Part shown: positions 1,294-12,151 of the stretch, one piece after another
How positions within the stretch are numbered: position 1 is the first letter of the stretch
Layout: the number at the start of each line of letters is the position of its first letter
Assembly: GCF_000009605.1 (NCBI RefSeq)
Contig: NC_002528.1
Coordinates: 240,001 to 272,000, forward strand
Direction of reading: 5' to 3'
From: Buchnera aphidicola str. APS (Acyrthosiphon pisum)
GTDB taxonomy: Bacteria > Pseudomonadota > Gammaproteobacteria > Enterobacterales > Enterobacteriaceae
DNA length: 32,000 nucleotides
Notes under the pieces: model-generated
What the model was told of the DNA's origin: nothing
The model's database searches: none
What the model saw: only the letters and a program-made list of their open reading frames with translations
Translations under genes and position numbers: made by a program

Positions 1294-2366
1294 CAACATA
1301 CCTTTAAAGAAATGAGACTTATGAGTAACAATATTAGTGACACAATCCAAAATCTTACGATAATCAAAGGTTCTAATATTCCTTTGACTTCATAATGGTG
1401 GTGAACTGGTGCCATTTGAAAAATTCTTTTTTTTCTTATTTTAAACGATATAATTTGTAATATCACAGATATTGTTTCAAAAACAAAAATACCACCCATG
1501 ATAATTAGTAGTAATTCTTGATGTAATAATATTGCTATAGCTCCTAAAGAACCACCTAATGCTAGTGATCCAACATCTCCCATGAACACTTTTGCTGGAT
1601 AGCTATTAAACCATAAAAAACCTAATCCTGAACCAACAATTGCCATACATAATATAGCTAGTTCTGTTGAATTTTTTACATATTGAACATGTAGATAATG
1701 TGAGATATTTATATTGTCGCTAAATAAAGATATTAATGTCAAACCACAAGTTAAAAAAATAACTGGCATAATAGCTAAACCATCTAATCCATCTGTTAGA
1801 TTAACTGCATTACTAGTGCCAACTAGTACAAAATAAGAAAGAAATATATATAAATAGTTTATTTCAAAATCATTCTTTATACAAAAGGGAATTATTAATT
1901 CAGTAGAAATAATATCTTTATTGTTTATCTTAATCATACAGATGAATATGAAAGCAATAATAGATAAAAAAAAATATTTCCATTTTAGTTTTAATCCTTG
2001 ACTATTTTTATACTTTATTTTTTTATAATCATCTATAAAACCTATTAAGCCATATCCTATTAAAATACTTATGACGTACCAAATATAAATATTGGATAAA
2101 TTACAGTATAGTATTGTCGAAAACAATATAGAAAAAATTATAAAAATTCCACCCATGGTAGGTGTGTTTTTTTTTGAATAATGTGTTTTTGGCCCATTAT
2201 TTCGTATAATTTGATATGTTTGTAATTTTTTAAAGTAATATATAAAATATGGCCCAATATATAGATTGATAAAAAAAGAAGTTAATAAGCTAAATATTGC
2301 ACGATATGGAATATAAGAAAGAATATTTAAATTTATATGTAAATATTTATTAAAAAAAATTAGCAT
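1293..2366 (-). CDS. mraY: phospho-N-acetylmuramoyl-pentapeptide transferase MraY
   Basis: 357-aa polytopic membrane ORF with MraY signatures NAVNLTDGLDGLA and VFMGDVGSLALGG. Length is close to the E. coli enzyme. dcw synteny holds, and the start overlaps the murF 3' end by 7 nt. Confidence 0.96.
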   Translation of the reverse strand: MLIFFNKYLHINLNILSYIPYRAIFSLLTSFFINLYIGPYFIYYFKKLQTYQIIRNNGPKTHYSKKNTPTMGGIFIIFSILFSTILYCNLSNIYIWYVISILIGYGLIGFIDDYKKIKYKNSQGLKLKWKYFFLSIIAFIFICMIKINNKDIISTELIIPFCIKNDFEINYLYIFLSYFVLVGTSNAVNLTDGLDGLAIMPVIFLTCGLTLISLFSDNINISHYLHVQYVKNSTELAILCMAIVGSGLGFLWFNSYPAKVFMGDVGSLALGGSLGAIAILLHQELLLIIMGGIFVFETISVILQIISFKIRKKRIFQMAPVHHHYEVKGILEPLIIVRFWIVSLILLLISLISLKVC

Positions 2367-3727
2367 TTTTTTTTGCTCTCCTTAATAAGATCTTCTACTA
2401 CTTTTTCCATTTTTGTACTACGAGATCCTTTAACTAATATGGTTATTTTTTTTTTCTTTAAAAAAACATTTTTTAAATATTCGCTTAATTTTTTTTTATT
2501 TAAAAAATGTTTGCCATTATTAAAAATTTTAGTGATTTCACTACTCATATCACCAATGCTAAAAATTTTATTAATTGCAGATGAATTAGCAGTATTTCCT
2601 ATCATTTGATGATACATCATACTGTTTTCTCCTAATTCGGCCATATCTCCAGTTACTAATATTTTATAACCTGGCATTCTTTCTAAAACTTTTATTGCTG
2701 AAATCATAGATGAAACGTTAGAATTGTAGGTATCATCAATTAAAATTTTATTGGGTTCTAGTATAATAGACTCTAATCTTTTTGAAACAATAGGTGTGTC
2801 CAATAGTCCTATTTTTATTTTTTTTAAAGGTATTTTAAGCGCAAATGAAAAGGCACTAGCTGCTAATGCATTAGATATGTTTTGGTAACCTAAAAACGGT
2901 AATGAAATATTTATTTTTCCACACGGTGTATGCATCGTAAAAGATGTGCCATGTATATGAATTTTAATATTACTACAAAAAAAATTACTATATTTTTTTT
3001 TTTTAATAGAAAAGAACAAAATATTACTGTTCTTTATGTCTTTTTTCCATTGTGAAAAATGATGACTATCTAAATTAATAATAACTGTACTATTAGGTTT
3101 TAAACCAGAAAATATTTCTGATTTTGCTTTAGATACTCCTAATAATGATTTAAATCCTTGTAAATGAGCACAATGAATATTATTAATTAGTATAATATCT
3201 GGTTGACTGATATTACTAGTATAAGCAATTTCGCCCGGTTTACTCGCACCTAATTCAATCACACCATATTTATGTTCTTGTTTTAATTGAAGTAAAGTCA
3301 TTGGAACACCAATATTATTGTTTAAATTATCAATAGTAGATATTGTATTCCCATTTTTCCTAAGTATAGAGGCCGTCATTTCTTTTACTGAGGTTTTTCC
3401 ACAAGAACCGGTAATAGCTAATATTTTTGCCTTAGTTTTTTTGCGAACCCAGCCAGCAATTTGACCTAACGCAATAGAAGTATTTTCCACTATAATATAT
3501 GGAACATGGGGTTTTATATTTTTTTGTGTAACAAATGCAGCACACTTTTTTTTTAAGGCATCGTGTATAAAAATATGAGCATCAAATTTTCTACCTATTA
3601 AAGCAATAAAAAGACAACCTGGAATAATTTTTTTAGTGTCTATGACAATTTCATTTATTAACAAATCTGCTCCATATAGCGTTCCGTTCGTTATTAAAGC
3701 AATTTTTTTTAATGATAAAGAAATCAT
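2360..3727 (-). CDS. murF: UDP-N-acetylmuramoyl-tripeptide--D-alanyl-D-alanine ligase MurF
   Basis: 455-aa ORF with Mur-ligase ATP site ITGSCGKTSVKEM. It lies between murE and mraY, with an ATGA overlap onto the murE stop. It contains in-frame A12 (2993-3004) and A10 (2446-2455) runs. Confidence 0.94.
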   Translation of the reverse strand: MISLSLKKIALITNGTLYGADLLINEIVIDTKKIIPGCLFIALIGRKFDAHIFIHDALKKKCAAFVTQKNIKPHVPYIIVENTSIALGQIAGWVRKKTKAKILAITGSCGKTSVKEMTASILRKNGNTISTIDNLNNNIGVPMTLLQLKQEHKYGVIELGASKPGEIAYTSNISQPDIILINNIHCAHLQGFKSLLGVSKAKSEIFSGLKPNSTVIINLDSHHFSQWKKDIKNSNILFFSIKKKKYSNFFCSNIKIHIHGTSFTMHTPCGKINISLPFLGYQNISNALAASAFSFALKIPLKKIKIGLLDTPIVSKRLESIILEPNKILIDDTYNSNVSSMISAIKVLERMPGYKILVTGDMAELGENSMMYHQMIGNTANSSAINKIFSIGDMSSEITKIFNNGKHFLNKKKLSEYLKNVFLKKKKITILVKGSRSTKMEKVVEDLIKESKKKC

Positions 3728-5217
3728 ATATTTTTTCCTAATAAATTTAATACTATTTTTTTATCTGAATAGTTTATAGATCTATTTTGAATTATTTGTT
3801 TTTCTTCGTGTCCTTTTCCAGCTATTAAAATTATATGATGATATTTTGCTCCGAAATAAGCATAAGATATTGCTTTTTTTCTATCAGGGATAATTAATAT
3901 TTTTTCCTTATTTTTACAACCATTTAAAATATCTTGAATAATTTTTTTTTCTTTTTCATTTCTGGGGTTGTCATTAGTAATGATCACTTTATCTGACATT
4001 TTTTCTGCAATAGCACCCATAATAGGGCGTTTTTTTTGATCTCTTTCTCCTCCGCATCCAAATATACACCATATATATCTTTGGTAATGTGAATGAATGG
4101 CATTAAGTGTTTTTTTTAGTGCATCAGGTGTATGAGCGTAATCGATAATAAAAGTTGGTTTTTTGACATAAGAAAATAATTCCATTCGACCCTGTACTGG
4201 TATTATTTTTTCAGACGTATGGATTAAGTCTGATAAACTATAGCCTAGTTCTAAAAGACAAGCTAATGACAACAGGAGATTAGTGACATTAAAACGTCCA
4301 ATTAAACAAGAGGATATTCTTCCTGTTCCCCAACTAGATTCAAATGTAATATAAATGGAATTATTATTCTGTTCAATATTAGTGGCATTAATCCATTTTG
4401 TAGAATATTTTTTTTGTTTTCTGTTTTGAATAGTAACAGCTACTGTGTAGAAATTAAGTAGTTTTTTTAACCATATTTTCCCATATTGATCATCAGCATT
4501 TAATATAATTTTTTTTACCTTATGTGTACTAAATAATAACCATTTTGCGGATTCATATTTTTCCAAATTTTCATGATAATCTAAGTGATCTTGAGTTAGA
4601 TTAGTGAAAATTGCAATATAAAAAGGAACTTCTTTAACGCGATGTTGTATCAAACCATGTGAAGAAACTTCCATAGTCACTAATTCAGCTTGTTTTTCTA
4701 AGACTTTAGATAAGAATAGTTGAATAAAAATAGGCGAGGAAGTTGTATTATTTGTAGGTTGCAAAGAATTATAAAAACCATTTCCTAAAGTTCCCATAGT
4801 TGCTGTTTTTGTACCTAAAATTGTACTCCACTGATTGATTAATTGTGTTACCGTAGTTTTTCCATTAGTACCAGTTATGCCAATGATTTTTAATCTCTTT
4901 CCTGGTTCTTTATAAAAACGATTTGCTAACAATGATACATTTTCAGATAGTTTAAAAAAGTATATTAGAATAACATTCTTGATATATTTAAATATTCCAT
5001 GCTTATCTTTTTTTTTAGTTTCACATAGAATAGCTGCTGCTTTTTTATTAATAGCTTGAACAATGAAATGACGGCCATCTTTTTTTATCCCCGGAACTGC
5101 TATAAACAAATCTCCTGGAGTTAAAGTTCTGCTATCCATCTTCAAATTTGAAATATATTTTTTTGGAATATTTTTAATCCATGGTAATAATAAATATTTT
5201 AAGCAAATTTTATTCAT
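3724..5217 (-). CDS. murE: UDP-N-acetylmuramoyl-L-alanyl-D-glutamate--2,6-diaminopimelate ligase MurE
   Basis: 497-aa ORF with P-loop GITGTNGKTTV and a DNPR motif (ITNDNPRNE) typical of DAP-adding MurE. The N-terminus LLPWIKN...LKMDSRTLTPGDLFIAVPG parallels E. coli MurE. The start abuts the ftsI stop. Confidence 0.95.
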   Translation of the reverse strand: MNKICLKYLLLPWIKNIPKKYISNLKMDSRTLTPGDLFIAVPGIKKDGRHFIVQAINKKAAAILCETKKKDKHGIFKYIKNVILIYFFKLSENVSLLANRFYKEPGKRLKIIGITGTNGKTTVTQLINQWSTILGTKTATMGTLGNGFYNSLQPTNNTTSSPIFIQLFLSKVLEKQAELVTMEVSSHGLIQHRVKEVPFYIAIFTNLTQDHLDYHENLEKYESAKWLLFSTHKVKKIILNADDQYGKIWLKKLLNFYTVAVTIQNRKQKKYSTKWINATNIEQNNNSIYITFESSWGTGRISSCLIGRFNVTNLLLSLACLLELGYSLSDLIHTSEKIIPVQGRMELFSYVKKPTFIIDYAHTPDALKKTLNAIHSHYQRYIWCIFGCGGERDQKKRPIMGAIAEKMSDKVIITNDNPRNEKEKKIIQDILNGCKNKEKILIIPDRKKAISYAYFGAKYHHIILIAGKGHEEKQIIQNRSINYSDKKIVLNLLGKNI

Positions 5218-6957
5218 TCAGTTCCTTTTATTTGATTTTAAAATCATTTTTTGATTTGACAAGTTATCTGGTTTTATATTCATTTTTTTTAATATTAGTT
5301 TCATTATATTACTAAAAACTGGAGCAGAAACCGCTCCTCCATAATATTTTTTTCCTTGAGGATTATCGAGAATAATTATCAATGAAAATCTTGGATCGCT
5401 AGCTGGTGCAATTCCTGCTGTATAAGCTGTGTATTTTTTAATATAACGCCCATGAATTCCTACTTTTTTTGCAGTCCCTGTTTTTACAGCAACACGATAT
5501 CCTCGGACTGCCGCTTGAAGACCTCCTCCACCTGGTTGAGAAACACTTTCCATCATATTAATTACTTTTTTGACATATTTTGGGGGGAAAATTTGTTTTC
5601 CGCCTGTTGGACGGTCAGTTTTTATAATTGAAAGTGGACGATATATTCCATAACTAGCAATAGTAGAATATAATCTTGCTAACTGAAGTGGAGTTACCAT
5701 AAGTCCGTATCCAAAAGACAAAGTAGCTTTATCTAAATTAGACCACCTTTTTTTAGGAGGGAAAAAACCATGTTTTTCTCCTATTAATCCTAGTTGAGTA
5801 GGTTTACCTAATCCAAATTTAATATAACTATCGAGTAATTTTAAAGTTGGCATGGATAGTGCAATTTTTGACACACCCACGTTACTTGATTTTTGCAATA
5901 TACCAGTTATCGTAAGTTTTTCATGATAGGATACATCTTTTATTTGATGTTTTTGAATTAAAAAAGGTTTTGTATCAATAATTGAATTTTCTTGTATTAT
6001 TCCAAGTTTTAACGCTTCTATAATGACTATTGGTTTTACTGTTGAGCCAGGTTCAAAAAGATCTGTAATTGCTTTATTACGAACATTTTTTTGTATGATA
6101 TGTCGTATATTATTAGGATTATATGAAGGACTATTTGCCATAGCTAGAACCTCTCCTGATTTAATGTTAATTAAAATTGCAGTTCCAGAATCAGATTGGC
6201 TTTTTTTAACCCCTTCTTGTAATTCATTATATACAATAGTTTGTAATTTTGTATCAATGCTAAGATTTAAGTTATTAGATGCTCGTTTATGAACTAAAGA
6301 TATTTTTTCAATAACATGTCCTTTATTATCTTGTCTTATTTTTCTTTTTCCTGGTTTTCCTGTTAATAATAAATCGAAGCTTTTTTCTATTCCTTCAATC
6401 CCTATTCCATCTATATTAGTAAAACCTACTAGTTGAGCTGAAATTTCTTTAAATGGATAGTATCTTTTTGATTCTTCTAATAAAAAAATGCCAGGTAACT
6501 GTAATTTTTTAATATATTCTGAAATTTCAGGATTAATTTGACGAGCTAAGTAAATAAATTTTGATTTTTTATGAGAATTTATACGTAGAAACATTTTTTT
6601 TAAAGGAATAGAAAGAATTTCTGATAAAGCTTGCCAACGTTTATGGTTTTTAATATTTTTTGTTTTTAGAATTACTGATGGATCTGCACAAATTGCGTTT
6701 ACTAATACAGTAACTGCTAACGGATAACCTCTTCGATCCTTAATTGCACCTCTTGTACTAAGTAAAGATTGTGTTCTTAATGTTCGACGATCTCCTTCTG
6801 TTATTAATCGATTAGAACTGATAATTTGTAAAAAAATTACGCGAAGTGTTAAAATAAACAGGGACAAAAAAATAAAGCCATATAATAAAAAAAAACGCCA
6901 ATTTATATAATTTATTTGTTTTGATTTTAAAAATCTATTTTTTTCTTTTTTATACAT
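5218..6957 (-). CDS. ftsI: peptidoglycan D,D-transpeptidase FtsI (PBP3)
   Basis: 579-aa ORF with an N-terminal membrane anchor ([19 protein letters not shown]). Penicillin-binding motifs STVK, SSN and KTGTA are all present. dcw synteny holds. Confidence 0.95.
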
Positions 6958-7090: not shown

Positions 7091-7275
7091 ATTTTTTTTT
7101 TTTTTTTTTGAATAACATCTTCTTCTTCTGTAATTAATAATCGAGTATTATAAACTGTAATGATGACTAAGCTAGCTGATAATATAATAGCTATTAATAA
7201 AGTTAAATGAATTTTCCCATATAAAAGAAAATCATTTTTGATGATTTTAGGTAAATCATAACGTTGAATTTTCAT
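7072..7275 (-). CDS. ftsL: cell division protein FtsL, truncated as encoded (67 aa); the reading frame is lost inside an A18 run
   Basis: YDLPKIIKNDFLLYGKIHLTLLIAIILSASLVIITVYNTRLL aligns with the E. coli FtsL TM region (...[40 protein letters not shown], recalled). The ORF then ends KKKKKMMNGEI* straight after the homopolymer. It lies between rsmH and ftsI. Confidence 0.85.
   Translation of the reverse strand: MKIQRYDLPKIIKNDFLLYGKIHLTLLIAIILSASLVIITVYNTRLLITEEEDVIQKKKKKMMNGEI
7092..7109 (-). repeat. 18-nt poly(A) homopolymer inside ftsL (T18 on the + strand)
   Basis: Counted directly: 9 T at 7092-7100 plus 9 T at 7101-7109, flanked by a (7091) and g (7110). Confidence 0.97.
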
Positions 7276-7277
7276 AT

Positions 7278-8216
7278 TTATTCTTGTATTTCTGCGATAC
7301 GAAGTACGGAGCTGCGAGCTCTAGGATTATTATTTATTTCATTTTGTGTAGGTAATATACGATTTATAATTTTTAATTTACATGTTGTTAACCTATTTAA
7401 TTGTTCTTCCGTAATAGGCATTCCGTATGGAATAATTGCTTTTGTGCTGTTTTTAATCATGAATTTTTTTACTAATCTGTCTTCTAAAGAATGAAAACTA
7501 ATAATAGATATACGTCCTCCTGGCTTAAGTATTTTTAGCGTGCTTTCTAAAGCTTTTTGAATTTCTTCTAACTCTTGATTGATATAAATTCTAATTGCTT
7601 GAAAACTCCTTCTTGCTGGATGTTTAAATTTATTTTTTGTTGGTATAGTTTTTTTAATAATGTTGGCTAATTCTAGAGTACTGGTTATTTTTTTTATTTG
7701 ACTTCTACGTTTGATAGCATAAGCTATTTTTCTTGAAAAACGTTCTTCTCCGAAATTTTTTAAAACAAAAGAAATTTCTTTAACATTACTTTCAAAAAGC
7801 CATTCGGAAGCAGAAATTCCATAATTAGGATTCATTCGCATATCTAAAGGGCCGTCATTTTTAAATGAAAAACCTCTTCTATAATCGTCAATTTGTATTG
7901 AAGAAACTCCTAAATCAAATATAATTCCATTTACTTTCCCTATAATTTTTTCATTTTTTGCAAAATCTAATAATTTTGAAAAATTTTCATTAATTATATG
8001 AAAACGTGAATCTTTGATTTCACTTCCTATGGAGAAAGCAATGGGGTCTCTGTCAATAGAATATAATCGACCATTTTGTCCTAATTTTTTCAAAATTTCA
8101 TTTGAATGTCCACCTGTTCCAAATGTACTGTCAATATAAATACCGTTTTTTTTTATTTTTAAAGAATCAATTAGTTCTTTTTTCATTACTGGAATATGTT
8201 TAAATATGTGATTCAT
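7278..8216 (-). CDS. rsmH: 16S rRNA (cytosine1402-N4)-methyltransferase RsmH (MraW)
   Basis: 312-aa ORF with SAM-binding [10 protein letters not shown], plus [11 protein letters not shown] and [17 protein letters not shown] blocks typical of RsmH. It is the first gene of the dcw cluster here; no mraZ lies upstream. Confidence 0.95.
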
Positions 8217-10534: not shown

Positions 10535-10849
10535 TTTTTTCCTCCAGGATACTAATTTATTAGGTTGTATTTCCTAGATCTCTATCTATCAGTTTATCCT
10601 GTAGTTCATCTAGATAAAATTAGCACTATTTAGTTTAAAAGATTATAAAAAATTCAAAAAATTTATTTTTAATGTTATGTTTTATTTAAGAAGTCATTTT
10701 AAATGATGTCATGTTTTATTACTATTAAATGAAAAATTAATTTTGATTTTTATTATTGCAAATATATCAGATATTATCAATTAATAGAAAGTATTAAGTA
10801 TTATTTAATGTAATTTAGTTTTTATATGTTGAATGATTGGAATATTTTT

Positions 10850-11907
10850 TTCAACTAAAAATCTTTTAAATTTAGGTGAGATCCATGTTGAAAAAACATT
10901 TTTTTTTTGAGTAATAAGACATACCGCTAATTTCTCTTTTAATGCTAACTTTTGAGCTTTTCTAAAACCTAGTATTAATAATCCTGTATCCCAAGCGTCT
11001 GATTCTAAAGCTGTTGAGGAAATTACACTAACTGAAACTAAATTATGATGTATAGGTTTGCCGCTATGAGGATCAATTAAGTGCGAAATATGTTTTCCTT
11101 CAAGAGAATAATAATTACGATAACTGCCTGCTGTACTGATTGCATTATTCTTTAAATATACAAGTAAGTGTATTGATTTTCTTCTATCAACAGGTTTTTG
11201 AATTGCGATAATTTTATCTTTTCTTGTATTTTTTTCTACTTTGACTAATACAGCTCCTCCTACTGAGATAGTATAATTTTTTATTTTTTTTTTGTAAGTA
11301 TACGTGACAAATGATCTACAGCAAAGCCTTCACCAAGAGTGGAAAGATTAATTTCTATCCCATCTATATCTTTTTCTAGAAACATCCCAAAAGAATTTTT
11401 AATAAGTTTTAAATGTTGACTTCCGGAAAGGAAAATTTTTTCTTTTATTTTTTTTTTAGAAGGATAATGAGTGAGTTTTTCTTTAGTGCCAAATCCCCAC
11501 ATATTAATTAATCGACTAATTGTAATATCTAATTTCCCATTAGTTTTTCGATTAATTTTTAGGGCGGTTGAAATAATTTTAAAAAAATCTTGATTGATTA
11601 TTTGACGCTGATGTTTTTTTAGTCTATTAAATTGAGATACAAGAGAATTTTTCTTCCAAGAAGAAAGCATTTTTTCATCTTCATCTAAATTTTGTTGTAT
11701 TAAATTTTTTATGTATTTTTTATTTTTTAAATTAGGGATCTTGACTTGCCAATATGTACCCATAGTTTTTCCTGTTAATGTTGCAATATTTTGTTTTTCT
11801 CTATCTAAATATCTATTATAAAAATTAACGACTATAAATATAAAAAAAATAAAAACACTGTAAATAATTTTTAAGAACATAAATAATATTATTCTCCTAA
11901 TTAACAA
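10850..11907 (-). pseudogene. apbE: FAD:protein FMN transferase ApbE, frameshifted at an A10 run (N-terminal 208 codons at 11907-11281; C-terminal ~144 codons at 11287-10850 in another frame)
   Basis: The N-terminal ORF (LTGKTMGTYWQVKIP...DITISRLINMWGFG...LSTLGEGFAVDHLSRILTKKK*) matches E. coli ApbE up to ...ADHLARLMEQEG. Hand translation of the next frame gives IKNYTISVGGAVLVKVEKNTRKDKIIAIQKPVDRRKSIHLLVYLKNNAISTAGSYRNYYSLEGKHISHLIDPHSGKPIHHNLVSVSVISSTALESDAWDTGLLILGFRKAQKLALKEKLAVCLITQKKNVFSTWISPKFKRFFS* (stop TGA 10850-10852). This matches the E. coli C-terminal half (ISRYLVSVGGA...GISTSGSYRNYYELDGKRLSHVIDPQTGRPIEHNLVSVTVIAPTALEADGWDTGLMVLG...WMSPQFKSFLV). Confidence 0.88.
11284..11293 (-). 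repeat. 10-nt poly(A) run at the apbE frameshift site
   Basis: The + strand reads tta tttttttttt g (T10 at 11284-11293). The minus strand reads ACA AAA AAA AAA TAA. With 11 A it would read ACA AAA AAA AAA ATA AAA AAT TAT ACT, which joins the two halves. Confidence 0.95.
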
Positions 11908-12151
11908 AAATAAATTTTATCTGATAAATAAAAAAATAAAGTTATAGATTTTTTTGAGTTTTCAAATATAAATATTTATTATTTTGTAGTTTGTTTTCTA
12001 ATTTTCAATCTTTTTAAAAATTTTATATAGATATTAACCAGAAATGGAGTTAAATATCGATGGAGTGTATAATAAACATTTATTCTATTGTGTAATGCAT
12101 TATAATAATATCTTTGTTTACAGATTAGATTGTAATTATGAGAAAGAAATA

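Follow-up and report, generated by a model that had tools for sequence, protein, structure and literature searches.

The apbE gene of Buchnera aphidicola str. APS, the pea-aphid (Acyrthosiphon pisum) endosymbiont, was analyzed in a window of 32,000 nucleotides (contig NC_002528.1, positions 240,001 to 272,000 of the forward strand; coordinates below are those of the window). The gene lies on the minus strand at 10805..11880 and encodes ApbE, a protein that transfers flavin mononucleotide (FMN) from flavin adenine dinucleotide (FAD) to other proteins (FAD:protein FMN transferase). Its reading frame is broken at a run of ten A, and one A added to this run gives a protein of 358 amino acids from the ATG at 11880. 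The -1A lesion is real, and A10 is the fixed allele in all pea-aphid Buchnera sampled. We give about even chances to the proposal that a minority of full-length ApbE is still made, with low-level function persisting through slippage at the run.

To delimit the gene, the reverse complement of 10800-11960 was translated in three frames. The N-terminal frame (11281..11880, minus strand) runs for 199 codons from the ATG at 11880, which is the start in public annotations and lines up with homologues, to a premature TAA at 11281-11283. Use of the upstream alternative TTG at 11907 gives 208 amino acids (11281..11907), which bears out the fragment of that length, ending at the tract, that had been described in an earlier note on this sequence. 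The tract, at 11284..11293, consists of exactly ten A on the coding strand, as the note had read it; it covers codons 196-199 and is in frame as A11. The TAA follows directly after the A10, and the last residues before it are ...EGFAVDHLSRILTKKK, the frame ending ...VDHLSRILTKKK (also ...ILTKKK) at the stop. The downstream frame (10808..11284, minus strand) comprises 159 codons, IKNYTISVGG...IQHIKTKLH, followed by TAA at 10805-10807. Counted from the preceding stop at 11330-11332, this adjacent frame is open for 174 codons, and about 0.001 stretches of this length are expected by chance in six frames at the composition of the window (26.4% G+C, with stops amounting to 8.5% of codons in shuffled sequence). 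Insertion of one A fuses the two frames to ...DHLSRILTKKKIKNYTISVGGAVL..., the junction with 11 A being DHLSRILTKKKIKNYTISVGGA; A9 or A12 at the tract leads into the third frame, with a stop about 22 residues further on. The C-terminal tail of the repaired protein reads ...WISPKFKRFLVEKNIPIIQHIKTKLH and ends in ...KRFLVEKNIPIIQHIKTKLH before the stop.

These translations corrected several details of the earlier note. The continuation after the tract has 159 codons where 144 had been counted, the gene ends at 10805 where 10850 had been given, and the repaired protein has 358 residues (from the ATG) or 367 (from the TTG) where about 352 had been estimated. The end WISPKFKRFFS proposed for it is a mistranslation: the final KRFFS and stop appeared because one base slipped in aaaagatttttagttgaa, whose correct translation is K R F L V E. 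The central claim was upheld, as the gene is one A short and shows no secondary decay, with no other stop or indel and with the invariant residues kept. The note was also right that the C-terminal half has no Met and escapes the calling of open reading frames (ORFs): the downstream frame has no usable ATG, GTG or TTG, none of these giving an ORF of at least 30 amino acids. As the downstream part lacks a start codon it is therefore not made alone, and a working enzyme needs recoding; a separate C-terminal half produced by internal initiation was ruled out on the same ground, with no in-frame ATG, GTG or TTG.

Both parts of the gene belong to one ApbE domain. As encoded, the match to the Pfam ApbE family (PF02424) is split over two frames, the N-terminal fragment covering profile positions 1-147 (E = 7.8e-29) and the downstream piece positions 149-264 (E = 2.4e-27). 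A full-length match needs one added A, and the repaired protein matched positions 1-263 of 266 (E = 1.9e-63, 214.9 bits for a cut-off of 25.6). Its alignment to E. coli ApbE (PDB 2o18) spanned residues 40-357 (E = 1.7e-89) and passed ungapped through the junction and through the gene's two other A10 runs, and the gapless junction match noted earlier between the repaired DHLSRILTKKKIKNYTISVGGA and E. coli DHLARLMEQEGISRYLVSVGGA was recovered. In V. cholerae ApbE the conserved active-site residues are Ser241, His257 and Asp285, a proposed Asp-Ser-His triad, and an ungapped alignment with chain 6nxi placed them at A251, H267 and D295 of the Buchnera protein. His267 (codon 11081..11083, minus strand, within SHLIDP), which corresponds to His257, the general base of catalysis, and Asp295 (codon 10997..10999, minus strand, within ESDAWDTG), the equivalent of Asp285, lie in columns invariant across the ApbE alignment and are both encoded 3' of the frameshift. 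Since translation of the unedited message stops before these two catalytic residues, the 199-residue product cannot be an active flavin transferase, and activity of this fragment alone was ruled out. The position of Ser241 is occupied by Ala251 (ISTAG compared to ISTSG in E. coli and IATSG in V. cholerae); as Ala is also present in most intact Buchnera orthologues, it is a lineage trait and not decay of the A. pisum copy. All columns invariant in 37 ApbE sequences are kept by the repaired A. pisum protein.

The N-terminus begins with a hydrophobic segment, MFLKIIYSVFIFFIFIVVNF (11821..11880, minus strand), that has no lipobox Cys. Neither Cys nor a lipobox was present in the first 37 residues of A. 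pisum ApbE, and the maximum Kyte-Doolittle 17-mer score was 2.76. The earlier note had reported, correctly, that the lipobox Cys is missing and that the N-terminus looks like an uncleaved membrane anchor, yet these traits are general to the Buchnera ApbE examined: in all those with a full N-terminus the first 20 residues are strongly hydrophobic and the lipobox is absent, and a Pantoea orthologue has LMGC. Judged from its residues, the segment is probably an uncleaved signal anchor, and such an anchor would fit a location of ApbE on the periplasmic face; truncated and non-lipidated ApbEs are active.

The A10 tract was found at the same place in eight of eight pea-aphid sequences: the window, CP002301, CP002302, AP036055, three Logan assemblies and one JGI metagenome contig. 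The product of the neighbouring ilvI gene was letter-for-letter identical on CP002301, CP002302, AP036055 and the Logan assemblies of the three read sets. The 199-residue ApbE fragment was called in all six genome and Logan loci, and these differ from the window at one to four single-nucleotide polymorphisms (SNPs) within apbE; because they differ at SNPs, the A10 sequences are independent. Altogether 24 contigs have this fragment on record, and an allele named 'str. APS' matches the window exactly. A metagenome pattern scan for the sequence just 3' of the tract added the JGI contig, with its A10, and no further A. pisum contig. A true tract of 11, which the earlier note had considered, was thus not seen in any of the eight A. 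pisum Buchnera sequences. Homopolymers are error-prone in some sequencing chemistries, but an error of sequencing or assembly that hides an A11 genome with an intact gene is hardly credible in view of eight independent A10 sequences and of the same length reported for strains Tokyo, 5A and Tuc7. Replication slippage on the lysine-coding poly(A) tract removed one A, changing A11 to A10. The SNP density in apbE is 5.5 per kb, ordinary for the region, and the strains differ at about 0.5% of sites. At 11758 (codon 41, GGT or GGC, synonymous) a T is present in the window only, all seven other pea-aphid sequences having C, an otherwise identical APS-type assembly among them; the T could be either private to this sequence or a base-calling error of old date.

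A consensus of A10 could also coexist with minority A11 genome copies that supply ApbE in the highly polyploid Buchnera. In the same window the ftsL run has 14, 16, 17 or 18 A depending on the assembly, the apbE tract spans 18, 19 or 20 nucleotides in three related lineages, Degnan et al. 2011 report within-sample indel polymorphism, and Baranov et al. name such a class 'pseudo pseudogenes'. Such toggling at the DNA level is nonetheless improbable, since the eight consensus sequences, from varied continents, years and technologies, all have A10 and no full-length product is on record.

The tract is unstable outside A. pisum too. When genomes were scanned at species level with the ApbE alignment, the 80 loci obtained included just two Buchnera, both distant (from Pterocomma and Pemphigus), and close relatives were fetched singly. 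The Buchnera of Acyrthosiphon caraganae (L087) has an annotated truncated ApbE of 212 amino acids, with a near-identical copy (P0118) in nr that is probably from A. kondoi and for which a look-up gave no record. Both proteins end in ...DHLSYILKKKNKKLYYLS, where the tract has been translated in the other wrong frame, and the L087 DNA has A12 at this place. Taking out one A yields an A. caraganae frame that runs on to the usual end of the gene and is well conserved. Between the flanks ATACT and TTATAC there are 18 nucleotides in the closest intact relative, L088 (longest run A10, in frame), 19 in A. caraganae (longest run A12, out of frame), 20 in A. pisum (AC followed by A10, out of frame) and 21 in most other Buchnera (run interrupted, in frame). 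Among the eight lineages compared, the two with an uninterrupted 10-12 A have it out of frame, and in the intact genes the run is broken by other codons, leaving a longest A stretch of 3-8. The sole exception is L088 (also P0001, from JGI 3300009473), the closest intact ApbE with 82% identity, which has one codon fewer at the tract and an in-frame A10. The tract grew long in this clade because codons that interrupt it in other Buchnera (Gly, Thr, Gln, Arg) became AAA. Synonymous distances place A. caraganae nearer to L088 than to A. pisum, so that the A10 and A12 frameshifts arose separately at a single hypermutable tract, a conclusion also reached by Degnan et al. 2011. A lineage near the A12-frameshifted A. 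caraganae, L088, thus keeps apbE intact. The multiple disruptions in sister strains that the earlier note had envisaged were not found.

This exact lesion has already been published. Viñuelas et al. 2007 placed apbE, like cvpA and yigL, among the pseudogenes of strain APS. In Table S3 of Degnan et al. 2011 (PLoS Genet 7:e1002252), apbE is given as -1A (10A) in A. pisum Tokyo, 5A and Tuc7, with rnfA, B, C, D, G and E all intact; as +1A (12A) in A. kondoi, with all six rnf genes intact; as -1T (9T) in Schizaphis graminum, with rnfC -1A (10A) and the other rnf genes intact; and as deleted in Uroleucon ambrosiae, together with all rnf genes. Their discussion considers recent inactivation or correction by transcriptional slippage, citing Tamas et al. 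2008; the earlier note had arrived at the same two alternatives, which we judge to be the right pair. That supplementary table of 2011 thus already gave the apbE lesion with the length of its tract, the several strains that carry it and the A. kondoi counterpart, and the additions made here are the open downstream frame behind A12 in A. caraganae, the selection analysis and the positions of the catalytic residues. The table files apbE under 'thiamine' and draws no link to Rnf, because the flavin-transferase function was established later.

This function connects apbE to the rnf genes. ApbE is a Mg-dependent enzyme that attaches FMN from FAD to the Thr/Ser of D-x-x-[ST]-G-A-[ST] in extracytoplasmic redox proteins, and RnfG and RnfD carry covalent FMN attached by ApbE. 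Charles et al. 2011 list RnfABCDEG for A. pisum Buchnera. The statement of the earlier note that ApbE flavinylates Rnf and that Buchnera keeps rnf genes was accordingly sound, rnfA, B, C, D, G and E being intact in A. pisum. A search with E. coli RsxG returned enteric relatives for all of its best 120 matches, with no Buchnera RnfG among them. In favour of a rescue, rnfA-E are intact in both A. pisum and A. kondoi, and U. ambrosiae is without both rnf and apbE. As far as we found, the pairing of apbE with rnf (both kept in Acyrthosiphon with apbE frameshifted, both deleted in Uroleucon) is not stated in the literature.

Two routes of recoding could yield full-length ApbE. Firstly, RNA polymerase could add one A by backward slippage on the A10/T10 template. 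Secondly, the ribosome could slide by -1 on A-AAA-AAA just before the TAA. Both routes would give an identical protein, ...ILTKKKIKNY.... In Tamas et al. 2008, slippage at long poly(A) runs is reported to have given 12-50% corrected transcripts in frameshifted genes of Buchnera and Blochmannia. A CirSeq study of pea-aphid Buchnera found that single-A insertions in transcripts grow exponentially with run length, up to 11 nucleotides, and in many bacterial genomes selection against A runs is evident from about 9 nucleotides. The supplements of the CirSeq paper hold no per-gene Buchnera entry for apbE. Because ApbE is a catalytic maturation enzyme, a low level could suffice to flavinylate RnfG and RnfD, and a trickle of ApbE for a retained Rnf would keep the downstream frame under purifying selection.

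Constraint downstream of the tract was measured by the Nei-Gojobori method as the ratio of nonsynonymous to synonymous substitution rates (dN/dS) on a codon alignment of six lineages. After the tract, dN/dS was 0.19-0.25, far below 1, for pairs involving A. pisum, 0.15-0.18 for A. caraganae versus intact lineages and 0.125-0.17 for pairs of intact lineages; before the tract it was 0.12-0.28 in all pairs. The downstream frame offers a neutral stop target of 31.7 site-equivalents in 477 nucleotides, and a neutral frame would stay free of stops with a probability of 0.53 after 0.02 substitutions per site, which drops to 0.04 after 0.1. For the A. pisum branch, the pairwise values gave a three-point estimate of about 0.3 synonymous substitutions per site. 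Non-translation, if real, spans at most the most recent part of this branch.

Alternatively, apbE may be a young dead pseudogene at the start of the usual path of erosion, the -1A having killed the gene shortly before the sampled pea-aphid strains diverged, too recently for a second lesion. We consider this a serious possibility that falls somewhat short of an even chance. Homopolymer indels are the usual first inactivation step in Buchnera, with 11-13 such genes per A. pisum strain (Degnan et al. 2011), and at a strain diversity of about 0.5% even a neutral frame would be expected to have remained open (P = 0.85). Against it, A. pisum, A. kondoi/caraganae and S. graminum each carry a single homopolymer lesion and no other, which would require a short neutral window every time, and the A12 allele is common to the symbionts of two named aphid species. 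Moreover, RnfG and RnfD, the only known ApbE clients here, are intact, and Rnf would not be expected to function without its flavins; in all strains the gene's two remaining A10 runs have stayed in frame.

Several further observations weigh against the persistence of a functional product, and a number of them are what a young pseudogene would leave. On microarrays, apbE belongs to a weakly expressed, low-GC class (Viñuelas et al. 2007). The CirSeq survey of pea-aphid Buchnera, which covers annotated protein-coding transcripts only, reports no frame-restoring error. No full-length 358-residue product was found from any assembled dataset in a collection of 15 billion proteins. After the tract, dN is mildly raised in A. 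pisum pairs (0.084-0.124 versus 0.056-0.076 in intact-intact pairs), and two of the three SNPs found there within the species are nonsynonymous (D222N and H264Y, in variable columns). The breakage or loss of apbE in four Aphidinae lineages also admits an explanation by relaxed constraint, which predicts it and which Degnan et al. 2011 consider. Likewise, the open frame and low dN/dS are compatible with an inactivation no older than roughly the final tenth of the A. pisum branch, the values of 0.19-0.25 being compatible with continued purifying selection but also with neutrality over that interval. Finally, folding of the RNA around the tract gave no structure beyond that of shuffled sequences (z = -0.41). 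A programmed ribosomal frameshift with a 3' stimulator was ruled out by this absence of structure.

Returning to rescue by slippage, a stronger form would make apbE a long-kept, slippage-dependent gene whose A10 and A12 alleles are both clean downstream for the sake of RnfG/RnfD flavinylation and which is lost outright only with rnf. We advance this form tentatively, as clearly short of an even chance. The locus is a clean one for a test, as any peptide from the downstream half proves recoding because that half has no start codon of its own. Its tryptic peptides include NYTISVGGAVLVK, SIHLLVYLK and NNAISTAGSYR; in the junction peptide of the earlier note, IKNYTISVGGAVLVK, trypsin cuts after IK. 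As the general phenomenon of poly(A) frameshifts and slippage in endosymbionts has been known since 2008, the lesion matters little as a discovery. What it bears on is Rnf: pea-aphid Buchnera keeps six rnf genes with a broken apbE, and Rnf there either runs on a trickle of slippage-derived ApbE or is already non-functional. Either outcome has consequences for how the energy and redox metabolism of Buchnera is modelled.

In addition to the frameshifted tract, apbE contains a second A10 run at 11448..11457 (minus strand, SKKKIKEK), in frame and with no gap across it in the comparison with E. coli, and a third at 10899..10908 (minus strand, ITQKKNVF), in frame, in the downstream part and identical in all strains. 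The gene alone thus holds three of the seven A/T runs of at least 10 nucleotides in the 32-kb window, an unusual wealth of slippery tracts for one short gene, just one of the three being out of frame. The gene order in public A. pisum Buchnera is dapD-degP-apbE-ilvIH-rsmH-ftsL-ftsI-mur. A promoter and terminator scan gave 14 sites versus 11.3 expected and was uninformative in this AT-rich DNA.

Two other regions of the window also vary between pea-aphid sequences. The essential cell-division gene ftsL (minus strand, between ftsI at 5218..6957 and rsmH at 7278..8216) has an A18 run at 7092-7109 that is out of frame. Pea-aphid assemblies have 18, 17, 16 or 14 A in this run, and only A16 (L001, CP002302) gives the full FtsL of 83 amino acids; ftsL is not in Table S3 of Degnan et al. 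2011. Either this variation is noise from assembling a long homopolymer, or ftsL is a far better candidate than apbE for slippage-dependent expression. In murF and murE (2360-5217, minus strand; loci L001-L006 around 16165, 18161), pea-aphid strains differ by indels: a 3-nucleotide indel in murE (497 or 498 amino acids) and a 1-nucleotide indel near the 3' end of murF (455 or 458 amino acids), the window grouping with the Japanese APS-type assembly AP036055. An A12 run of murF at 2993-3004 is in frame in the window; for strains 5A and Tuc7, Degnan et al. 2011 give a frameshifted murF.

Among known systems, the entry of Degnan et al. 2011 concerns the same gene, organism, tract, length and inferred event as described here, but it does not analyse the downstream frame, selection or where the catalytic residues lie. 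The orthologous ApbE of E. coli and Salmonella (PDB 2O18, 4XGV, 3PND) matches end to end with the catalytic His and Asp conserved, and E. coli ApbE has the same expected clients, RnfG/RnfD being RsxG/RsxD; Buchnera apbE differs from both in its interrupted frame, in having no lipobox Cys (it is not a lipoprotein) and in the Ala at the Ser241 equivalent. The class reported by Tamas et al. 2008 (PNAS 105:14934) and Wernegreen et al. 2010 (MBE 27:833) resembles apbE in having a single poly(A) indel in an otherwise intact gene of an AT-rich, reduced genome and a frameshift conserved across populations and paralleled in a sister species, with RNA polymerase slippage proposed to rescue the gene through a mixed pool of mRNAs. 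Correspondingly, apbE has a single indel in a long poly(A) tract and a frameshift conserved in eight A. pisum sequences without further decay. Slippage was reportedly demonstrated, unlike for apbE, for cell-wall genes of another aphid's Buchnera and for a Blochmannia histidine gene. The dnaX gene of Thermus thermophilus and genes of insertion sequence (IS) elements, in which slippage occurs at A9/T9, share with apbE a sense run of at least 9 A, giving mRNAs with variable numbers of A and products in different frames. In these dnaX and IS genes, however, slippage is programmed and conserved and both products are used, whereas the Buchnera apbE tract looks like an accident of AT bias, for which, in contrast to T. 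thermophilus dnaX, only the corrected product could be useful.

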